Origin: a plasmid
Assembly: GCF_055900595.2 (NCBI RefSeq)
Contig: NZ_JBVWEU010000003.1
Direction: 5' to 3' (one strand)
DNA length: 64,000 nt
Shown: in pieces, positions 83 to 10,124 of the stretch
Layout: the number at the start of each line of letters is the position of its first letter
Numbering within the stretch: the first letter of the stretch is position 1
Notes under the pieces: model-generated
What the model saw: the letters and a program-made list of their open reading frames with translations, nothing else
Database searches by the model: none
What the model was told of the DNA's origin: nothing
Made by a program: the position numbers and the translations under genes

Positions 83-610
83 ATGAGTGCACGTGGTATC
101 AACAAGGTCATCCTCGTCGGGCGTCTGGGCAATGATCCGGAAGTCCGTTACATCCCCAACGGGGGTGCAGTGGCAAACCTGCAGGTGGCTACGTCAGAAA
201 GCTGGCGCGACAAACAGACGGGGGAGATGCGGGAGCAGACGGAATGGCACCGCGTGGTGCTGTTCGGCAAGCTCGCGGAAGTGGCAGGTGAATATCTGCG
301 CAAGGGCGCGCAGGTCTACATCGAGGGGCAACTCCGTACCCGTAGCTGGGAAGATAACGGTATCACCCGTTACGTCACTGAAATTCTTGTTAAGACCACG
401 GGCACCATGCAGATGCTGGGGAGTGCACCACAGCAGAACGCTCAGGCGCAACCGAAGCCTCAGCAGAATGGGCAGCCACAGAGTGCTGACGCGACGAAAA
501 AAGGTGGCGCGAAAACGAAAGGCCGTGGACGTAAGGCCGCGCAGCCCGAGTCTCAGCCGCAACCGCCGGAGGGGGAGGATTACGGGTTTTCAGACGATAT
601 CCCGTTCTGA
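83..610 (+). CDS. ssb: Plasmid single-stranded DNA-binding protein
   Basis: 175 aa; OB-fold N-terminus, Gln/Pro-rich linker and the acidic C-terminal tail ending DDIPF typical of SSB; AGGAGG RBS upstream. Confidence 0.95.
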
Positions 611-964: not shown

Positions 965-2923
965 ATGTCAGTTACAGAGTCTAAGACAAAAACGGAGCGT
1001 AAATCCAGCCGTAAACCTGCAAAAACGCAGGAAACAGTCCTGTCTGCCCTGCTGGCGCAGACGGAGGAAGTGAGCGTGCCGCTGGCCTCACTGATTAAGT
1101 CACCGCTGAATGTGCGCACGGTGCCGTATTCTGCGGAGTCCGTCAGTGAACTGGCTGATTCCATTAAGGGGGTCGGCCTGCTGCAGAATCTGGTTGTTCA
1201 TGCCCTGCCAGGTGACCGCCACGGTGTCGCCGCAGGTGGTCGCCGACTGGCTGCACTCAATATGCTGGCAGAGCGTGGCATCATTCCGGCGGACTGGCCT
1301 GTCCGCGTGAAGGTTATTCCGCAGGAACTGGCGACGGCGGCATCAATGACTGAAAACGGTCATCGTCGGGATATGCACCCTGCTGAACAGATTGCCGGAT
1401 TCCGCGCAATGGCGCAGGAAGGCAAAACACCTGCACAAATCGGTGATTTGCTGGGCTATTCACCCCGCCATGTCCAGCGAATGCTGAAACTGGCTGACCT
1501 TGCGCCTGTCATCCTCGATGCGCTGGCAGAAGACCTCATCACCACCGAGCACTGTCAGGCGCTGGCGCTGGAGAACGACACCGCTCGTCAGGTGCAGGTG
1601 TTTGAAGCCGCCTGTCAGTCAGGATGGGGCGGTAAACCGGAAGTGCAGACCATTCGTCGTCTGGTGACCGAAAGTGAAGTGGCGGTGGCGGGGAACAGTA
1701 AATTCCGCTTCGTGGGGGCTGATGCCTTCTCGCCAGATGAACTGCGCACCGATTTGTTCAGCGATGACGGGGACGGTTATGTCGACCGCGTGGCGCTCGA
1801 TGCCGCCCTGCTGGAAAAACTCCAGGCTGTCGCTGAACACCTTCGGGAAGCCGAAGGCTGGGAATGGTGCGCCGGACGTATGGAGCCTGTCGGTTTCTGC
1901 CGTGAGGATGCCGGAACATACCGCAGTCTGCCGGAGCCGGAAGCTGTGCTGACGGAGGCGGAAGAAGAACGCCTGAACGAACTGATGGCACGTTACGACG
2001 CGCTGGAAAATCAGTGTGAGGAATCCGACCTGCTGGAAGCAGAAATGAAGCTGATGCGCTGCATGGCGAAGGTCAGGGCGTGGACGCCGGAGATGCGTGC
2101 CGGAAGTGGCGTGGTGGTGTCCTGGCGTTATGGAAACGTATGTGTCCAGCGTGGTGTGCAGTTGCGCAGTGAGGATGACGTGGCTGACGACGCTGGCCGC
2201 ACGGAACAGGTGCAGGAGAAAGCCTCCGTGGAGGGAATCAGTCTGCCGCTGCTGACGAAAATGTCTTCCGAACGCACGCTGGCAGTCCAGGCGGCACTGA
2301 TGCAGCAGCCGGACAAATCCCTGGCACTGCTGGCATGGACGCTCTGCCTGAATGTGTTTGGCAGCGGAGCGTACAGTAAACCAGCACAAATCAGCCTGGA
2401 ATGTAAACATTATTCGCTGACCAGCGATGCGCCATCGGGGAAGGAAGGTGCCGCGTTCATGGCGATGATGGCAGAAAAAGCCCGTCTTGCGGCCCTGTTA
2501 CCGGGGGGATGGTCACGGGACATGACGACGTTCCTTTCACTCAGTCAGGAGGTGCTGTTATCCCTGCTCAGTTTCTGCACCGCGTGCAGCATCCACGGCG
2601 TTCAGACCCGCGAGTGTGGTCACACGCCACGCAGCCCGCTGGACACGCTGGAGAGCGCCATCGGTTTTCACATGCGCGACTGGTGGCAGCCGACAAAAGC
2701 AAACTTCTTCGGACACCTGAAAAAGCCGCAGATTATCGCAGCCCTGAATGAGGCAGGACTGTCCGGTGCCGCACGGGACGCGGAGAAGATGAAGAAAGGC
2801 GATGCGGCTGAACATGCAGAGTTCCATATGAAAGACAACCGCTGGGTGCCTGGCTGGATGTGTGCACCACGTCCACAGACGGATACCACTGAACGCACTG
2901 ATAACCTGGCTGATGCCGCCTGA
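965..2923 (+). CDS. ParB-like nuclease domain protein of the leading region
   Basis: 652 aa; N-terminal ParB/Sulfiredoxin-like segment (LQNLVVHALPGD...GGRRLAAL) plus HTH-like segment (PAQIGDLLGYSPRHVQRMLKLA); conserved position upstream of psiB. Confidence 0.8.
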   Translation: MSVTESKTKTERKSSRKPAKTQETVLSALLAQTEEVSVPLASLIKSPLNVRTVPYSAESVSELADSIKGVGLLQNLVVHALPGDRHGVAAGGRRLAALNMLAERGIIPADWPVRVKVIPQELATAASMTENGHRRDMHPAEQIAGFRAMAQEGKTPAQIGDLLGYSPRHVQRMLKLADLAPVILDALAEDLITTEHCQALALENDTARQVQVFEAACQSGWGGKPEVQTIRRLVTESEVAVAGNSKFRFVGADAFSPDELRTDLFSDDGDGYVDRVALDAALLEKLQAVAEHLREAEGWEWCAGRMEPVGFCREDAGTYRSLPEPEAVLTEAEEERLNELMARYDALENQCEESDLLEAEMKLMRCMAKVRAWTPEMRAGSGVVVSWRYGNVCVQRGVQLRSEDDVADDAGRTEQVQEKASVEGISLPLLTKMSSERTLAVQAALMQQPDKSLALLAWTLCLNVFGSGAYSKPAQISLECKHYSLTSDAPSGKEGAAFMAMMAEKARLAALLPGGWSRDMTTFLSLSQEVLLSLLSFCTACSIHGVQTRECGHTPRSPLDTLESAIGFHMRDWWQPTKANFFGHLKKPQIIAALNEAGLSGAARDAEKMKKGDAAEHAEFHMKDNRWVPGWMCAPRPQTDTTERTDNLADAA

Positions 2924-2974: not shown

Positions 2975-3412
2975 GTGATGAAAACTGAACTGACCCTGAA
3001 TGTATTACAGACCATGAGTGCACAGGAATATGAAGATATCCGTGCTGCGGGAAGCGATATGCGCCGTAATCTCACTCACGAGGTGATGCGTGAAGTGGAC
3101 GCACCGGCTAACTGGATGATGAATGGCGAGTATGGCAGTGAGTTCGGGGGCTTTTTCCCCGTCCAGGTTCGTTTCACGCCAGCCCACGAACGTTTCCACC
3201 TGGTATTATGTTCGCCGGGAGAAGTCTCTCAGCTCTGGATGCTGGTTCTGGTGAATGGTGGTGGACAGCCTTTCGCCGTCGTTCAGGTGCAACATATCTT
3301 CACGCCTGTCGCGATCAGTCACACGCTGGCGCTCGCCGCGACACTTGATGCGCAGGGATACAGTGTTAACGACATCATTCATATTTTGATGGCAGAAGGA
3401 GGTCAGGCATGA
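2975..3412 (+). CDS. psiB: Plasmid SOS inhibition protein B
   Basis: 145 aa; near-identical over its length to PsiB as recalled ([13 protein letters not shown]...[13 protein letters not shown]). Confidence 0.95.
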
Positions 3413-4128
3413 GCGCACGTTCACGGGCACTGATCCCCCTCAGCGCAGAACAACAGGCCGCCATGCAGGCTGTGGCTGTCACCGAACAACGTCGTCGTCA
3501 GGGACGCACACTTTCAGCATGGCCTTATGCCAGCGCTTTCTTTCGCTGCCTGAATGGCAGTCGCCGGATTTCGCTGACCGATCTCCGCTTTTTTGCTCCT
3601 GCGCTGACGAAGGAGGAATTTCATGGCAACCGTCTCCTGTGGCTGGCTGCCGTGGATAAACTGATTGAAAGTTTTGGTGAAGTCTGTGTTCTTCCCCTGC
3701 CATCCGATGCGGGGCACCGTCTGTTCCCGTCCGTTCCTTTTCGTGAAGGTGAGCGTCGTCGTCAGAAAACCACGCTGACAGAGCAGAAATACAGCCGCCA
3801 GCGGGAACGTGAGGCAGAACGACGGGAACTGGAATACCAGACATGTTTTGCTCAGGCGCAGATTGACCTTGCGTTTCATACTCCCTCCACGGTCGGAAGC
3901 TGGTTGTCCCGCTGGTCTGGTGTTGTTGAGGAGCATGATCTGGAAACGATTTTCTGGGGGTGGTGCGGGCGTTTTCCGTCACTGTCATCATTTGACCGTT
4001 TTTTCTGGCAGGAGGAACCACTCTGGCGGCTGATTTTTGAAGCCGGTGAGGCCGGTCGTGGTGCACCGGTACAGGTACGTGCACTTGAGCAGTGGATGAT
4101 CCCGAACAAGCTGGAGAACGTAATATGA
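3409..4128 (+). CDS. psiA: Plasmid SOS inhibition protein A
   Basis: 239 aa; start overlaps the psiB stop (ATGA); matches PsiA N-terminus (MSARS.ALIPLS.EQQAA...[19 protein letters not shown]). Confidence 0.95.
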
Positions 4129-4721: not shown

Positions 4722-5185
4722 ACCAGTGGAGGTATGCTTGAGGGGCAGGGACATGCCGGTCATGATCGTTTCGTTCCAGGGGTGGTCTGGAGATCATGCG
4801 GCGTGTCCTCTGCACTCGCCGGAATAAGGACGTCGCCGCCGGCTCCGCTTTTACCCGGCCATGCGGGGCATGGCCTTGTGGGTTTTCAGTTATGTGGCCG
4901 CCGTGTCGTGTGCGGGCTGTGCCGTGCCTCCATCGTAGCCGGGCTTCTGCGGGCGGGATGCAAGGTAAGATGAACCGCTGCGGTCACCCGGTCCCTCCTT
5001 CCCGTCTGCCGTGATTTTCCGGTCGTTCACCCGCTCAGATTTCGCGGTCTCACCCTCCAACTCCCGTCAGCCGTGCGCGTCGGGCTGCGGCTTTCCTTGC
5101 GCCCTTGCATCCCTGCAGGCCCGGCAAAGATGGAGGCACGGCACCGCCCGGTGTCGCAGAACATGTGACTATGGAGGATTCGGGA

Positions 5186-5686
5186 ATGTCTGTTGTTGCA
5201 CCTGCTGTATACGTTGGAACCTGGCACAAATATAACTGCGGAAGCATCGCCGGCCGCTGGTTTGACCTGACCACGTTTGATGATGAACGCGATTTTTTCG
5301 CCGCCTGCCGTGCCCTTCACCAGGATGAAACCGATCCGGAACTGATGTTTCAGGATTATGAGGGTTTCCCGGGGAATATGGCCTCTGAATGTCATATCAA
5401 CTGGGCCTGGGTTGAAGGCTTCCGCCGGGCACGGGATGAAGGCTGCGAAGAGGCTTATCGTCTCTGGGTGGATGATACCGGTGAGACGGATTTTGACAGC
5501 TTCCGCGATGCCTGGTGGGGCGAGGCTGACAGTGAGGAGGCTTTTGCGGTTGAGTTCGTCAGTGATACCGGCCTGCTGGCTGACGTGCCGGAGACGGTGG
5601 CGCTCTATTTTGACTATGAGGCGTATGCGCGGGATTTATTCCTGGACTCCTTCACCTTTATTGACGGTCATGTGTTCCGTCGGTGA
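5186..5686 (+). CDS. ardA: Antirestriction protein ArdA (type I R-M inhibitor, DNA mimic)
   Basis: 166 aa from the in-frame ATG at 5186, preceded by GGAGG; highly acidic; matches ColIb-P9 ArdA as recalled (MSVVAPAVYVGTWHKYNCGSIAGRWFDL...IDGHVFRR). Confidence 0.9.
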   Translation: MSVVAPAVYVGTWHKYNCGSIAGRWFDLTTFDDERDFFAACRALHQDETDPELMFQDYEGFPGNMASECHINWAWVEGFRRARDEGCEEAYRLWVDDTGETDFDSFRDAWWGEADSEEAFAVEFVSDTGLLADVPETVALYFDYEAYARDLFLDSFTFIDGHVFRR

Positions 5687-6024
5687 TTTACTCCCCCGCT
5701 CCGGCGGGGGTATGGCCTGCCGGGCCGCCGGAAAACCCTGGCAGGCTTACGCCTGCCTGAAATGCAGGAGGGCCGCGCCTGCGGCGCTGCCCTTCCTGCC
5801 CGTCATGGTGTGAGGCATTTTTCTGTTATGTCGTTTCTGTTGTTCTGATTTCCGGAGGCGGGGACACCCTTCGGCTCCCGGCTGCCTGGCGGCATCCGGT
5901 CGTCAGGCCCGACTCCGACAGGCAGCTGCTGGCGCACCCGCCAGTCTCCGCCGAACCCGCTGGCGCGGTTTCGGGCTGCCGCTACGGTCCGATGTCTGAA
6001 AAACCAGGCCTGCAGCGACCGTTC

Positions 6025-6400
6025 CGGTCGCGCCGCCCCTGTCGCGCCGGAAACGGCGCTCCCTGCACACCTGACGGTGTGTAAGGCCACTGCGCCTGAT
6101 GGCGCAGTTGTCTGCCCTTCCGCCGCCACCCCTGCGGCCTGTTTCCCGCTGTGGACTTTCCGGGGGCTGAAGCGGCCACAACACGTTTCAGCCGTCCAGG
6201 GGAGAGATGTACCAGCCACAAAACTTTTTGCCGCAGGCGTCAAAAACTTTTGCGTCTGCCCCCGGACAACTGCCCCGTGCCGTGGCAGTCGCTGCCCCAT
6301 CGGAAAGGTCCACTGCGGGGAGAAACCCCGAAGAAGTGGACGGCAGAAGGGGCTTTCGCCCCTCCGGGGAATAACCGGTCGGCCCGGCGACCTGATTCAG
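6025..6400 (+). promoter_or_regulatory. ssi/Frpo-like single-strand promoter element (repeat copy B)
   Basis: About 370-bp GC-rich non-coding element, near-identical in blocks to 8895-9255; several short hairpins (ACACC-TGAC-GGTGT, CTGCGCC-TGAT-GGCGCAG, GGGGC-TTTC-GCCCC); directly upstream of a + strand gene block. Confidence 0.6.
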
Positions 6401-6417: not shown

Positions 6418-6852
6418 ATGACAGTCAGCAGCACGATTTCCGTTTTTTGCCGAGACGGGGTGTTCCGTACCGTTTACTGCCACCTGCACGGTGAGCCGAC
6501 CTGGAACGGTCGCATCCTGCATACCCACTATGCCACCGGTCAGCTGGCCGAAGCCCTGGTTGAACACGGAGATATCCGTTGCCTCGGTCCCCGTTGCGAC
6601 AAACCCGCCGGGCATACGCTTCAGAACCCGGTGGACGGTGTGACGGCTTATTACGGACGTGACAGTGGTTTCCGGATGGACAGTGAAGCGCGTGAGTACC
6701 GCTCTTTCAGGGAGGCTATTGCCACTGAAAGCACAGAAGAGGTGCGCTTCCATTATGTGTTCATCGACGGCTACTGGAAGGTGATGTACCGCACGCCGGA
6801 AGGCTGGAAGATGAAAGCGCTCGCGCTGGCACTGCGTCGCTGTCCGGAATGA
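6418..6852 (+). CDS. Hypothetical leading-region protein (first gene after ssi copy B)
   Basis: 144 aa from ATG 6418 with GGAGA RBS; Cys/His-rich N-terminus (CRDG...CHLHGE...C..PRC); no family recognised. Confidence 0.55.
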   Translation: MTVSSTISVFCRDGVFRTVYCHLHGEPTWNGRILHTHYATGQLAEALVEHGDIRCLGPRCDKPAGHTLQNPVDGVTAYYGRDSGFRMDSEAREYRSFREAIATESTEEVRFHYVFIDGYWKVMYRTPEGWKMKALALALRRCPE

Positions 6853-6944
6853 AAAAAAGCAGGGCGATAAACCCTGCCTTTCTCCGCCGGCGCTTCCCCG
6901 TACGGAAGTCCGGCATCTCATTCACTAACTATGGAGATTATGCT

Positions 6945-7211
6945 ATGAGGCCATCAATTATCTTCGCAACCGCCGAGTATGTAAAGCGTCTGCGTGAAGA
7001 GTGCCGGCGGGAGAACAAACCCCTGCACCGCCATACCCGCTTCAGACGCCAGGAACTGGCACCGGATGAGATTAACCCGGACGTCCTGGCGATGGGCGGT
7101 CATATCGCCAGACGCTGCAGTGAGCGGAAGCGGGTGCGTATCCCCGCCATGAAAGTCAGCGAATGGGGCCACCTGCTCCGCGCGCTTGAAATTGAGCGGG
7201 TCTGCCACTGA
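6945..7211 (+). CDS. Hypothetical small basic protein
   Basis: 88 aa from in-frame ATG 6945 with GGAG 8 nt upstream; Arg-rich. Confidence 0.4.
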   Translation: MRPSIIFATAEYVKRLREECRRENKPLHRHTRFRRQELAPDEINPDVLAMGGHIARRCSERKRVRIPAMKVSEWGHLLRALEIERVCH

Positions 7212-7275
7212 TTAACCCTTGCCGTCTGCCTGTGCAGGCGGCAGGATACGTTCAGACATCTCACCAGGAGGAACC

Positions 7276-8193
7276 GTGAGTAAGAAGAAAACCACCACGA
7301 CGCCCACGCCGCATGATGCCGCGTTCCGGTCGTTCCTGGCGAACCCCGACGTCGCCAGAGATTTTCTGGAACTGCATCTTCCGGCGGAGTACCGGCAGTT
7401 GTGCGACCTGTCCACGCTGAAGCTGGAACCCGCCACCTTTGTTGAGCCGGACCTGCATCAGTACGCCAGCGATATCCTCTGGAGTGTGAAAACCACCGGG
7501 GGTGAAGACGGCTATATTTATACGCTCATCGAGCACCAGAGCACCGAAAATCTGTACATGCCTTTCCGCATGTTACGTTACAGTGTGGCGGCGATGCAGA
7601 GACATCTGGAGCAGCACAAAACATTGCCACTGGTGATTCCGGTGCTGTTCTATCATGGTGAGCGCAGCCCGTACCCGTACAGCATGAACTGGCTGGACTG
7701 TTTTGAGGATCCGGCACTTGCGGCTAAAATATACACAAAGCCGTTTCCGCTGGTTGATATCACTGTCGTTGATGACAATGAAATCATGAACCATCGCCGG
7801 ATGGCCGCACTGACGCTGCTGATGAAGCATATCCGTCAGCGGGATATGCTGATGTGTCTGGACAACCTGGTCAGGGCACTGCAGGACATCCAGGATGAAG
7901 AGCAGATTACAGTTCTTTTCAACTATCTGCTTAATGGCAGCGAACATGTAACGGTTAAATTTTTGCAGACGCTGGCGCAGCGACTGCCGCAGCACGAGGA
8001 CAGCATTATGACACTGGCAGAACGTCTTAAGCAGGAAGGAATACAGCAGGGAATACAGCAGGGAATACAGAAAGGCCGCATGGAGGAGAAGCTGGATATT
8101 GCGCGTCAGCTTCAGAAAACGGGAATGTCATTTGCACAAATCTGTCAGATCACCGGACTTTCTGAAGCCGAACTGAAAAAAATCGCCCACTGA
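7276..8193 (+). CDS. Rpn-family recombination-promoting nuclease (YhgA-like, PD-(D/E)XK)
   Basis: GTG start at 7276 after AGGAGG; N-terminus MSKKKTTTTPTPHDAAFRSFL and core ...YIYTLIEHQS... typical of Rpn proteins; C-terminal GIQQGIQQGIQKG repeat and helical tail. Confidence 0.85.
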   Translation: MSKKKTTTTPTPHDAAFRSFLANPDVARDFLELHLPAEYRQLCDLSTLKLEPATFVEPDLHQYASDILWSVKTTGGEDGYIYTLIEHQSTENLYMPFRMLRYSVAAMQRHLEQHKTLPLVIPVLFYHGERSPYPYSMNWLDCFEDPALAAKIYTKPFPLVDITVVDDNEIMNHRRMAALTLLMKHIRQRDMLMCLDNLVRALQDIQDEEQITVLFNYLLNGSEHVTVKFLQTLAQRLPQHEDSIMTLAERLKQEGIQQGIQQGIQKGRMEEKLDIARQLQKTGMSFAQICQITGLSEAELKKIAH

Positions 8194-8205
8194 GTAAACA
8201 TCACA

Positions 8206-8231
8206 GCCCGGCAAAATGCCGGGCTTTTTTG
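8206..8231 (+). terminator. Rho-independent terminator after the rpn gene
   Basis: GCCCGGC-AAAAT-GCCGGGC stem-loop followed by TTTTTT. Confidence 0.7.
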
Positions 8232-8254
8232 TCAGCAGGAGCAGAGCAAACAGC

Positions 8255-8413
8255 ATGACGATTGCAGAACGTCTTATTCAAAAAGGCGCTCTTGAAGTGG
8301 CGCGGGAAATAGCCTGCCGGCTTCGGGATATGGGCTGGACGCCGGAACGGATTCAGGAGGCAACCGGACTTTCCGGTGAAGAACTGAAAAAACTGTTTCC
8401 TGATGAGCTGTAG
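8255..8413 (+). CDS. Free-standing Rpn C-terminal-domain-like small protein (RpnS-like)
   Basis: 52 aa (MTIAERLIQKGALEVAREIACRLRDMGWTPERIQEATGLSGEELKKLF) resembling the C-terminal tail of the upstream Rpn protein (AERLKQEG...IARQLQKTGMSFAQICQITGLSEAELKKI). Confidence 0.4.
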   Translation: MTIAERLIQKGALEVAREIACRLRDMGWTPERIQEATGLSGEELKKLFPDEL

Positions 8414-8443
8414 CCTGGCATTCTGCCAGGCTGTGAATCACGC

Positions 8444-8695
8444 TCACACATCCTCTGCCGTTTCCCCCAGTTCATTTTCCAGTCGCCTGATGATATCTGC
8501 CTTACGCATCCCCTGCATGTGAGGCAGCAGGTCACGGACTGAAAGAGCCTGGGTGGTCCTCCAGACGGTGACGTCCACCTGTTCCGCATTTTCCCAGGCG
8601 TGCCATGTTCTCTGCGTCACGCCAAATTCTCTGGCCGCTTTTTCGCGTGACCAGAGCATGCTTTTTCGCCAGATTCGCAGTTCCCAGCCGGTCAT
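8444..8695 (-). CDS. Small HTH DNA-binding protein (Cro/XRE-like), opposite strand to the leading-region genes
   Basis: 83 aa; LWSREKAAREFGVTQRTWHAWE helix-turn-helix-like segment; ATG at 8695-8693. Confidence 0.55.
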   Translation of the reverse strand: MTGWELRIWRKSMLWSREKAAREFGVTQRTWHAWENAEQVDVTVWRTTQALSVRDLLPHMQGMRKADIIRRLENELGETAEDV

Positions 8696-8796: not shown

Positions 8797-8894
8797 TTTT
8801 TTGATTGTGGGTGTCGTGCTGTTTTCTCTGTTTTCACCTGTGCGGGAGTGGTGCGCCAGTGACCACAGCATGCCGTTGTTGTGCCGTCGGTTTT

Positions 8895-9255
8895 CTCCGG
8901 TCGCGCCGGATGCGGCGCTCCCTGCACACCTGACGGTGTGTAAGGCCACTGCGCCTGATGGCGCAGCTGTCTCTGCCTGTCTGCCGCCGCACTGCGGCCC
9001 GTTCTCCGCAGACGGACTTTCCGGGGGTACATACACGACCACATCCCGTTTCAGTCGTCCAGGGGAGAGATGTACCAGCCACAAAACTTTTTGCCGCAGG
9101 CGTCAAAAACTTTTGCGTCTGCCCCCGGACAACTGCCCCGTGACGTGGTGAGCGTCCCCCGTCGGAAAGGTCCACTGCGGGGAAATCCCCGAAGACCCGG
9201 ACGGCAGAAGGAGCTTCGCTCCTCCGGGAAATGACCTGGCTGACCCGGCAGTCGT
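8895..9255 (+). promoter_or_regulatory. ssi/Frpo-like single-strand promoter element (repeat copy C, oriT-proximal)
   Basis: Shares long near-identical blocks with 6025-6400 (for example GCGCTCCCTGCACACCTGACGGTGTGTAAGGCCACTGCGCCTGATGGCGCAG and CAGCCACAAAACTTTTTGCCGCAGGCGTCAAAAACTTTTGCGTCTGCCCCCGGACAACTGCCCCGTG). Confidence 0.6.
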
Positions 9256-9275
9256 GACGATGAGGAGACAATGTG

Positions 9276-10124
9276 ATGAATCAGACTTTACCCACTGCTG
9301 ACCTGAATACTGCCGGCACGACAGATGTTATTCCGTCTGTGGCTATCGACCGCATCATCGCGCAGCGTAACGAAGGTATTACACTGTTCATGCAGGCGAT
9401 GGAATGCCTGGCGACAGCGCGCAGGATTCTGCTCGATGCGTCAGGTGATATTTTTCTTTACGGGTTTGAAGACTGCGTGACTGATTCCGTTCGTCGCATG
9501 GATAAACCGGAAGAAGCGAAAAGGAATATCACCCGTCTTGCCGACCGGAAAATCTGGGACCGCCTGATGACAGATACGGGCATGTACACCTTCATGAGTT
9601 CATGCCAGCGTGATGAGTGGAACAGCCAGCTGATGAGCGACACCTGTCCTGAAATCACCCTGGACAATGTACTGGCAACATTCCGCCATCTGAATGCCAG
9701 CAAAATGCAGACATTTGAACAGGGACTGATTGATGTCTACCGGAAATTGTCATGGGATTACAGAACCAATAATCCCTGCCGTCTGGGCAAGAAAATCATT
9801 ATTGAAAACCTGCTGTACCGCTGGAGTAACGGGCGTGTGACGCTGGACTGCAGCGGACGGGAGGCACTGGATGACCTGGTACGTCCGTTTTATCTGCTGG
9901 AGGGGCGCAACGTTCCTGACTTCCGGAGCAGCATCGGGGCGCAGTATTGTGAATTTCTCGGGAACGGCGACAATATCGGTGAGTTGTTTGAAGGGGAATA
10001 TTTTACGGTGCGTGGCTACCAGAAAGGAACCGTACACATTGTCTTTAAGCGTTCTGACCTTGTTGAAAAACTGAATGATATTATTGCACGGCATTATCCT
10101 GGTGCATTGCCGCCACGAGTCTGA
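9276..10124 (+). CDS. Hypothetical protein, first gene downstream of the oriT-proximal ssi element
   Basis: 282 aa from ATG 9276 with GAGGAG RBS; no motif recognised with certainty; followed by a terminator. Confidence 0.6.
   Translation: MNQTLPTADLNTAGTTDVIPSVAIDRIIAQRNEGITLFMQAMECLATARRILLDASGDIFLYGFEDCVTDSVRRMDKPEEAKRNITRLADRKIWDRLMTDTGMYTFMSSCQRDEWNSQLMSDTCPEITLDNVLATFRHLNASKMQTFEQGLIDVYRKLSWDYRTNNPCRLGKKIIIENLLYRWSNGRVTLDCSGREALDDLVRPFYLLEGRNVPDFRSSIGAQYCEFLGNGDNIGELFEGEYFTVRGYQKGTVHIVFKRSDLVEKLNDIIARHYPGALPPRV

Follow-up and report, generated by a model that had tools for sequence, protein, structure and literature searches.

The segment 7276-8413 of a 64,000-nt stretch of plasmid DNA (NCBI RefSeq assembly GCF_055900595.2, contig NZ_JBVWEU010000003.1; hereafter the window) carries two adjacent genes of the Rpn family. 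The first, rpn (ygdB in IncI nomenclature), encodes a full-length Rpn nuclease, and the second, which we call the mini-gene, encodes an isolated Rpn C-terminal domain. The rpn genes are toxin-antitoxin systems in which RpnL is a toxic nuclease that cuts DNA and the antitoxin is RpnS, which is made from an internal start and binds to RpnL via the common C-terminal domain (Zhong et al. 2023, PNAS 120:e2307382120, PMC10400941). The features of the locus are listed here by window position.

7276-8193, plus strand: rpn, encoding RpnL, a predicted 305-aa PD-(D/E)XK nuclease toxin (an RpnP2 allele)
7996-8010, plus strand: putative internal translation start of RpnS, read from the sequence (GAGGA at 7996-8000, a 7-nt spacer and ATG 8008, i.e. 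Met245)
8008-8193, plus strand: RpnS, 61 aa, in frame inside rpn, with the C-terminal HTH_Rpn_C three-helix domain; putative cognate antitoxin, placed by alignment with the RpnA-E tails and the mini-protein, its function following Zhong et al.
8038-8073, plus strand: three four-residue repeats (GIQQ GIQQ GIQK; Rpn residues 255-266) in helix 1 of the tail
8205-8231, plus strand: intrinsic terminator between rpn and the mini-gene, with a 9-bp stem of 7 G-C pairs at 8205-8225 and then TTTTTT
8237-8241, plus strand: AGGAG, 13 nt 5' of ATG 8255, a possible long-spaced Shine-Dalgarno sequence by its letters, with an AGAG 8 nt upstream
8255-8413, plus strand: mini-gene of rpnSs type for a free-standing Rpn C-terminal domain (52 aa, 0 repeats in this plasmid; ATG 8255, TAG 8411-8413)
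8412-8432, no strand assigned: second hairpin, AGCCTGGCA-TTC-TGCCAGGCT, which closes the mini-gene unit and is a near-copy of the 8205-8225 hairpin without its T-run

The rpn open reading frame runs from a GTG at 7276, preceded by AGGAGG at 7267-7272, to a stop at 8191-8193. Residues 11-209 of its product match Pfam PF04754 (Transposase_31/YhgA-like; E = 1.9e-78), and the protein scores 187 bits against NCBIfam TIGR01784 (Rpn family recombination-promoting nuclease; cut-off 52). Over its full length it is 45-52% identical to RpnA-E of K-12. Orthologues of this Rpn carry PF27070 (HTH_Rpn_C) in precomputed annotation tables, which is where our PF27070 flags are taken from; a local Pfam scan of the full-length protein gave no PF27070 match, and the local copy may not hold this family.

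The window gene is an RpnP2 allele, because it matches the primers and gBlocks that Zhong et al. (2023) published in their Dataset S2 (PMC10400941). Primer AO739, which served for the rpnP2 deletion in ECOR13, has a 40-nt homology arm identical to 7236-7275; gBlock AO714 agrees with 7647-8037 at 381 of 391 positions, and gBlock AO591 with 6976-7374 at 387 of 399. Designed changes aside, the RpnP2 gBlocks are 97-98% identical to the window, and we take these matches to exclude another gene as the source of the published primers. RpnP2, which resides on a plasmid of E. coli ECOR13, is the same gene with the same internal start and the same four active-site residues, i.e. D14, D66, E86, and Q88, the positions altered in the inactive RpnP2 gBlock AO730 and all intact here. 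The internal start is the very site that Zhong et al. destroyed for the toxic RpnP2-L*, where the change designed into AO714 (GAGGACAGCATTATG to TCTGACACCATTTTA) removes both the Shine-Dalgarno sequence at 7996-8000 and ATG 8008, and it is kept in 22 of 22 sequences (21 plasmid loci and the window).

RpnP2 is strongly toxic without RpnS, and at alkaline pH the L/S pair gives protection from T-even phages (PMC10400941). Going by near-identity to the published allele, RpnL of the window would be a toxic DNA endonuclease and RpnS, translated from 8008, would be its cognate antitoxin; toxicity of RpnL, neutralization by RpnS, and T-even protection should carry over to the window locus. The two plasmids differ in their tail alleles, with GIQQ three times ... 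KKIAH in the window vs the ...LKNITH implied by the RpnP2 primers. They differ again in the mini-gene, which has 0 repeats here vs GFDE-type repeats on the ECOR13 plasmid (primer AO738). The published work on RpnP2 takes in neither the downstream mini-gene nor the leading-region position.

The mini-gene starts 61 nt past the rpn stop on the same strand, and the layout is alike in all 41 loci of our comparative sample: rpn stop, conserved hairpin, CAGCAGGAGCAGAGCAAACAGC, and mini-gene ATG. BLASTP aligns the mini-protein with its own Rpn (E = 2e-7, 39% identity), placing Met1 opposite Met245, and the single gap in that alignment, of 12 residues, is the three GIQQ repeats of the tail. The mini-protein also matches positions 232-273 of the 273 positions of the TIGR01784 profile (E = 1.7e-4) and, end to end, the sequence of RpnA-S (7TH0; E = 0.015), while its relatives carry PF27070 in precomputed annotation. 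A preliminary description of this DNA, made from the letters alone, had proposed a full YhgA-like PD-(D/E)XK nuclease gene, a clean terminator after it, and a 52-aa reading frame that looks like an isolated Rpn C-terminal tail. All three stand with exact coordinates, the last with the formal alignments just given. The same description stated that in chromosomal rpn genes an internally translated C-terminal fragment serves as antitoxin to the full-length nuclease, in agreement with Zhong et al. (PMC10400941).

An AlphaFold2 model of the mini-protein, computed with RpnA-S in the input alignment, has helices at residues 3-25, 30-37, and 41-47 (predicted local distance difference test score, 78.6). 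Foldseek returns RpnA-S as the top Protein Data Bank match of this model (7TH0; template modeling score 0.86, root-mean-square deviation 1.0 Å, probability 1.00, E-value 0.17). The mini-protein is accordingly modeled as a three-helix bundle whose first helix is long, like that of RpnA-S. The matches below RpnA-S all score weakly and are helix-turn-helix (HTH) DNA-binding domains (TetR, DeoR, Hin), and Zhong et al. also noted an HHpred relation of the domain to HTH motifs (PMC10400941), which together raise the option that the mini-protein is a small HTH DNA-binding regulator of the locus and not a protein-binding antitoxin. We find this very improbable, given that RpnA-S is the only strong structural match and that a first helix of variable length suits dimerization over DNA reading; no operator-like repeat was seen, although no search for one was made.

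The annotation pipeline PGAP begins the mini-gene at ATG 8216 and yields a 65-aa product, but that codon falls in the terminator loop, and the start and frame of the N-terminal extension vary among plasmids; the same changes of start and frame between plasmids affect still longer forms of 73-89 aa. Judged from these comparisons, ATG 8255 is the better predicted start. In a Pfam scan the 65-aa annotated form returned noise only, without a match to DUF4351 (PF14261). That annotation has been cited for RpnS genes that are separate "in some species" and is not required by the authors' description of such genes. Across plasmids the mini-protein carries 0-6 GF(D/K)(E/K/Q) repeats from residue 11 onward (after MTIAERLIQK), so that its length ranges from 52 to 76 aa, around a mini-type core of ALEVAREIACRLRDMGW.

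Stand-alone genes of this kind are on record, which overturns the suggestion of the preliminary description that the arrangement was undescribed: Zhong et al. report rpnSs genes that stand apart downstream of rpn, both on chromosomes and on plasmids, and the nuclease is their RpnP2 (PMC10400941). We are nearly certain that the locus is RpnP2 plus an rpnSs-type mini-gene. The closest E. coli comparators are rpnE-ypaA (ypaA being rpnESs) and rpnC-rpnCSs, where, as in the window, a stand-alone C-terminal-domain gene lies directly 3' on the same strand, starts at the Met of MTIAERL, derives from the tail of the upstream gene, and varies by four-residue repeats. In K-12, ypaA has one KLEG repeat more than the rpnE tail, so a mismatch between the two is not peculiar to the plasmid. 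The YpaA protein was detected by tagging (PMC10400941), although K-12 ypaA (L042 4905-6002) is listed as a pseudogene in RefSeq.

The plasmid locus also departs from these comparators. Its spacer is 61 nt long and holds a terminator vs 12 nt in K-12 rpnE-ypaA, the mini-gene is plasmid-borne and lies in a conjugative leading region, and it is far more diverged from the neighboring tail (39% identity, as above) than rpnESs or rpnCSs are from theirs. The plasmid family moreover combines a single mini-gene type with three tail types and includes tandem arrays of two mini-genes. A search of the literature on Rpn together with the leading region, on ygdB, and on RpnS/RpnL after 2023 returned nothing beyond Zhong et al. 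and a commentary.

Comparison of the plasmid loci points to the origin of the mini-gene. In plasmids with GRME tails, the DNA of the tail unit and that of the mini-gene unit are 71% identical, leader and terminal hairpin included, and because the identity includes both leader and hairpin we read the mini-gene as a tandem duplicate of the S-encoding unit. The full-length tails closest to it are those of the plasmid family's own GRME type (56% identity overall, ~68% over the core). The two hairpins that flank the mini-gene, at 8205-8225 and 8412-8432, are near-identical palindromes with arms AGCCCGGCA and AGCCTGGCA, and a predicted RNA fold of 8185-8440 (z = -5.3) pairs one with the other. We considered that this pairing might mark a mobile cassette or a riboregulator and dropped both ideas, as duplication of the tail-plus-hairpin unit probably accounts for it. 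The terminator hairpin is conserved in all loci, and in some plasmids a change on both sides at the base, from A:T to G:C, preserves the stem.

The rpn gene itself is variable at its 3' end. RpnL tails carry 0-6 repeats per plasmid (GRQE/GRME or GIQQ) and fall into three allele types, while the N-domains are 95-99% identical; the gene is, by these comparisons, an apparent mosaic in which the N-domain is conserved and the C-terminal third has been swapped. In many plasmids the match to the rpn query stops at position 590-593 (~window 7866), and because the matches end there the allele-specific part begins ~140 nt 5' of the internal start.

Repeat numbers in the tail and in the mini-gene vary independently. 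The two are equal in only 2 of 27 distinct plasmid combinations, where ~3.4 would be expected by chance, and they are not correlated (Spearman -0.20, P = 0.32; 27 combinations). For example, a single mini-gene allele stands beside tails of 1, 4, and 5 repeats (L036, L037, and L035, respectively), and the window plasmid pairs a mini-gene of 0 repeats with a tail of 3. The same mini-gene core type accompanies all three tail types.

Rearranged loci also occur. Two plasmid loci, L011 (1264-1743) and L030 (1281-1695), have two mini-genes in tandem after rpn, each with its own hairpin; in the first, a mini-type leader precedes a 53-aa domain of the GRQE tail type, while the second belongs to the usual GFxE type. 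In P0141, a tail-type core occupies the mini-gene position. These cases suggest cassette stacking, i.e. unequal recombination at the shared MTIAERL-coding segment, which would explain both the tandem mini-genes and P0141.

The same observations feed the main rival to a functional mini-protein, which is that the mini-gene is a relic or spare cassette without protein function, left by tail exchange at the MTIAERL segment, kept by linkage, and sometimes used as a recombination substrate. The tail-type first mini-genes of L011 and L030, the core in P0141, and the three tail types on a near-constant N-domain all fit such a history, as do the loss of rpnSs genes and their fusion to an N-domain, both noted by Zhong et al. 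(PMC10400941). The terminator 5' of the mini-gene, the lack of a promoter, and the dispensability of the mini-gene in published clones (see below) point the same way. Against it, all 42 sequences (the 41 loci plus the window, in 19 core alleles) have an intact mini-gene free of stops and frameshifts. Synonymous changes account for 12 of its 26 variant sites vs 24% expected (binomial P = 0.011), and its indels are solely 12-nt units, whereas the adjoining spacer of 61-62 nt has 1-nt indels. The start codon is conserved, and AGGAG is present in 17 of 18 distinct leaders. The chromosomal counterpart YpaA is made as a protein. Nor has the mini-gene been seen to donate a tail, as no RpnL with a mini-type tail turned up: none occurs among the 27 combinations or in the protein searches (with the 52-aa sequence, among representatives, and with a chimeric query of N-domain end plus mini-protein), though the chimeric word-index search returned only sequences of ≤228 aa and the absence of a mini-tailed Rpn is not proven by it. 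Taken with these signs of maintenance, the relic reading is unlikely, even though it is the strongest of the alternatives.

The constraint on the mini-gene can be set beside that on its neighbors. Pairwise ratios of nonsynonymous to synonymous differences (pN/pS) are 0.33 for the mini-gene, 0.40 for the tail core, and 0.04 for the nuclease domain. In PLSDB, the rpn N-domain is found in 2,019 of 72,556 records (~2.8%), with 95-99% identity in 1,999 of them, and the mini-gene region in 2,003 plasmids. The carriers are nearly all conjugative MOBP/MPF_I plasmids of Escherichia, Salmonella, and Shigella, of types IncI1, I-gamma, K, B/O, and Z (I-complex). On this pattern of conservation, the mini-gene is probably translated and its product folded.

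We propose, with a probability of roughly 0.6, that the locus is an RpnP2-type module of I-complex plasmids to which a tandem duplicate of the antitoxin-encoding unit has been added as an accessory or orphan rpnSs paralogue. RpnL (7276-8193), a PD-(D/E)XK DNA endonuclease, would be toxic alone, and the working antitoxin would be the 61-aa RpnS read in frame from 8008. In the published model, RpnS blocks the nuclease by pairing its long first helix with the C-terminal domain of RpnL, which is identical to RpnS. The mini-gene would have arisen by copying of the whole S unit (leader, three-helix domain, and terminal hairpin), would then have diverged, and would have gained and lost 12-nt repeats independently. 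Its product may be translated at a low level as a three-helix protein that dimerizes through helix 1. Any action on Rpn proteins would use the same helix-1 pairing, with helix length setting the specificity. In the window plasmid, as in most, the mini-protein would be unmatched to its neighbor and unneeded for self-immunity or phage defense. That the mini-protein modulates some Rpn protein by helix-1 pairing is a tentative part of this proposal, to which we give slightly less than even odds.

Several points weigh against the accessory-paralogue proposal. A strong terminator precedes the mini-gene and no promoter-like site lies between the two; the search for a sigma-70-like promoter between rpn and the mini-gene found none, and only a weak candidate was seen inside rpn, at 7703-7730. 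The distance of 13 nt from AGGAG to the ATG is long, and purifying selection on the mini-gene is only moderate by the pN/pS values above. The mini-gene shows no covariation with tail type, which would be expected if its product acts on Rpn tails. The rule that one extra repeat prevents neutralization (discussed next) was shown for RpnC only and may not hold here. Finally, the comparative sample is 41 loci out of ~2,000 plasmids.

The preliminary description had offered two roles for the mini-protein, restraint of its own Rpn and neutralization of Rpn nucleases in recipients. The first is disfavored. The four-residue repeats of helix 1 set specificity, and RpnC-S with one repeat added gives no neutralization (PMC10400941). 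In the window, rpn has its own RpnS at 8008, to whose repeat number the mini-protein (0 vs 3) does not correspond. The published constructs are also informative. The RpnP2 gBlock spans "300 bp upstream and 101 downstream" of the gene (PMC10400941), and both reverse primers, AO619 and AO738, stop at CTTATACAGAAAGGTTTCGACG, which is codons 7-13 of the mini-gene in ECOR13-type plasmids, so the published RpnP2 constructs cut the mini-gene after 13 codons, while the ECOR13 deletion leaves it in place. The clones end 101 bp past rpn, inside the mini-gene, and RpnP2-LS was thus nontoxic and protective with the mini-gene truncated. The mini-protein is unlikely to be the antitoxin of its neighbor because of the mismatch here, the uncoupling of repeats, the lack of covariation with tail type, and this dispensability; that it is the main one has, in our judgment, almost no chance of being right.

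A weaker version makes the mini-protein an additional antitoxin of its own RpnL, expressed separately, as a reserve for the time when a naive cell first transcribes the leading region. The mini-gene always adjoins rpn, its product has helix-1 hydrophobic positions in common with the commonest tail type, and RpnP2-L is strongly toxic without RpnS. These points are set against the repeat mismatch in 25 of the 27 combinations, again without covariation with tail type, the 39% identity to the window plasmid's tail, and the finding that RpnP2-LS without the mini-gene grows like the vector control. We regard the idea as improbable.

The second role depends on where the locus lies. It is in the true leading region, as the preliminary description stated, with the SSB, PsiB, PsiA, and ArdA genes upstream and NikA/NikB downstream on the same strand. 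The surrounding features are as follows.

83-610, plus strand: SSB, in the leading region
965-2923, plus strand: ParB-like protein
2975-3412, plus strand: PsiB
3409-4128, plus strand: PsiA
5105-5686, plus strand: ArdA
5960-6300, minus strand: candidate Frpo/ssi-like element, upstream of the orf144-ygdA-rpn gene string, with a second copy at ~8820-9160 before the DUF4942 gene
6418-6852 and 6945-7211: two small open reading frames
8444-8695, minus strand: HTH gene ygeA, 83 aa, convergent with the mini-gene and conserved throughout the loci
9273-10124, plus strand: DUF4942 protein, next to oriT
from ~10.7 kb, plus strand: nikA/nikB

The two copies of the Frpo/ssi-like element are made of direct repeats that are 95% (6038-6113 and 8897-8972) and 96% identical (6173-6285 and 9036-9148). 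Folded as single-stranded DNA, the minus (transferred-template) strand of 5960-6300 reaches -100.7 kcal/mol (z = -6.9), and the segment could be a single-strand promoter like the Frpo/ssi elements of IncI1 leading regions, with promoter activity inferred from Bates 1999 and Samuel 2024. The candidate element lies 5' of orf144-ygdA-rpn, and the strong terminator separates rpn from the mini-gene.

Orphan antitoxins are enriched in leading regions and may inhibit toxin-antitoxin systems of the host or of rivals (Samuel et al. 2024, Nature 635:186). Like the genes in that study, the mini-gene stands among ssb, psiB, psiA, and ardA near oriT, and its orientation permits transcription from the transferred strand with Frpo-like elements nearby; the main text of that paper makes no mention of Rpn. 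An orphan antitoxin delivered early in conjugation that neutralizes Rpn of the recipient, whether encoded by the chromosome or by a resident plasmid, would fit this location and the strand shared with ssb, psiB, and ardA, would be in line with the role proposed by Samuel et al., and would suit a repeat number that is independent of the neighbor, as an external target predicts. The sequence comparisons give no support to the corresponding proposal of the preliminary description: the RpnA-E tails of K-12 share only 35-48% identity with the mini-protein, RpnS proteins are paralogue-specific (RpnA-S fails to block RpnB; PMC10400941) with one added repeat enough to abolish blocking, and a full-length Rpn with a mini-type tail was not found in the combinations and searches described above. 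The terminator would moreover insulate the mini-gene from an early Frpo-driven transcript, and the mini-gene never occurs without rpn at appreciable frequency. We give this use of the mini-protein little credence.

Other observations concern the Rpn protein and the neighborhood. PADLOC-DB 2.0 has no Rpn model, and in it Rpn matches only "C3a178 putative invertase" (residues 212-278); because such a model is missing, the locus would not be flagged by standard defense finders of that date. The Rpn tail (residues 247-303) matches PHROG family phrog_5416, a 66-residue phage family of unknown function (E = 1.3e-7), while the mini-protein has no match to phrog_5416 at E < 0.01. By this similarity, phages also encode stand-alone proteins like the Rpn C-terminal domain, which are possible anti-Rpn factors. 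The ygeA protein matches phrog_6962 (E = 2e-13) and, very weakly, the PADLOC mad1 model. The DUF4942 protein matches the phage DNA methyltransferase family phrog_6263 (E = 9e-18), in keeping with the reported enrichment of methyltransferase-like genes in leading regions. Among PLSDB plasmids the closest is NZ_MW800640 (L001, IncK2/Z), which is 99.3% identical over window 7200-8450 and has an IS421 copy between ardA and orf144 (6868-7980), where the window (~5700-6400) has none.

The finding is largely an ordinary one, as Rpn genes arranged in such a way have been published before: what seemed a new locus is RpnP2, an experimentally characterized anti-phage toxin-antitoxin nuclease, with an rpnSs of the published type. 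Beyond what we found in print, it places a toxic "defense" nuclease in the first-entering part of ~2.8% of catalogued plasmids, amid anti-defense genes, and shows that a spare antitoxin-like gene is almost always kept beside it, with a helix length and a sequence type uncoupled from the toxin. A bolder account, which we think quite unlikely, is that the mini-gene is kept in ~2,000 plasmids for acting on something other than its neighbor, either by disarming Rpn of recipients or rivals or as a cassette for swapping tails to escape inhibitors. Were a non-neighbor the target, the repeat length of the mini-gene would diversify on an arms-race schedule of its own, independent of the adjacent toxin. 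The uncoupling of the mini-gene from its neighbor sharpens the question of what rpnSs genes do, and if the mini-protein does act on non-self Rpn, an antitoxin-decoy mechanism would be added to those of plasmid establishment.

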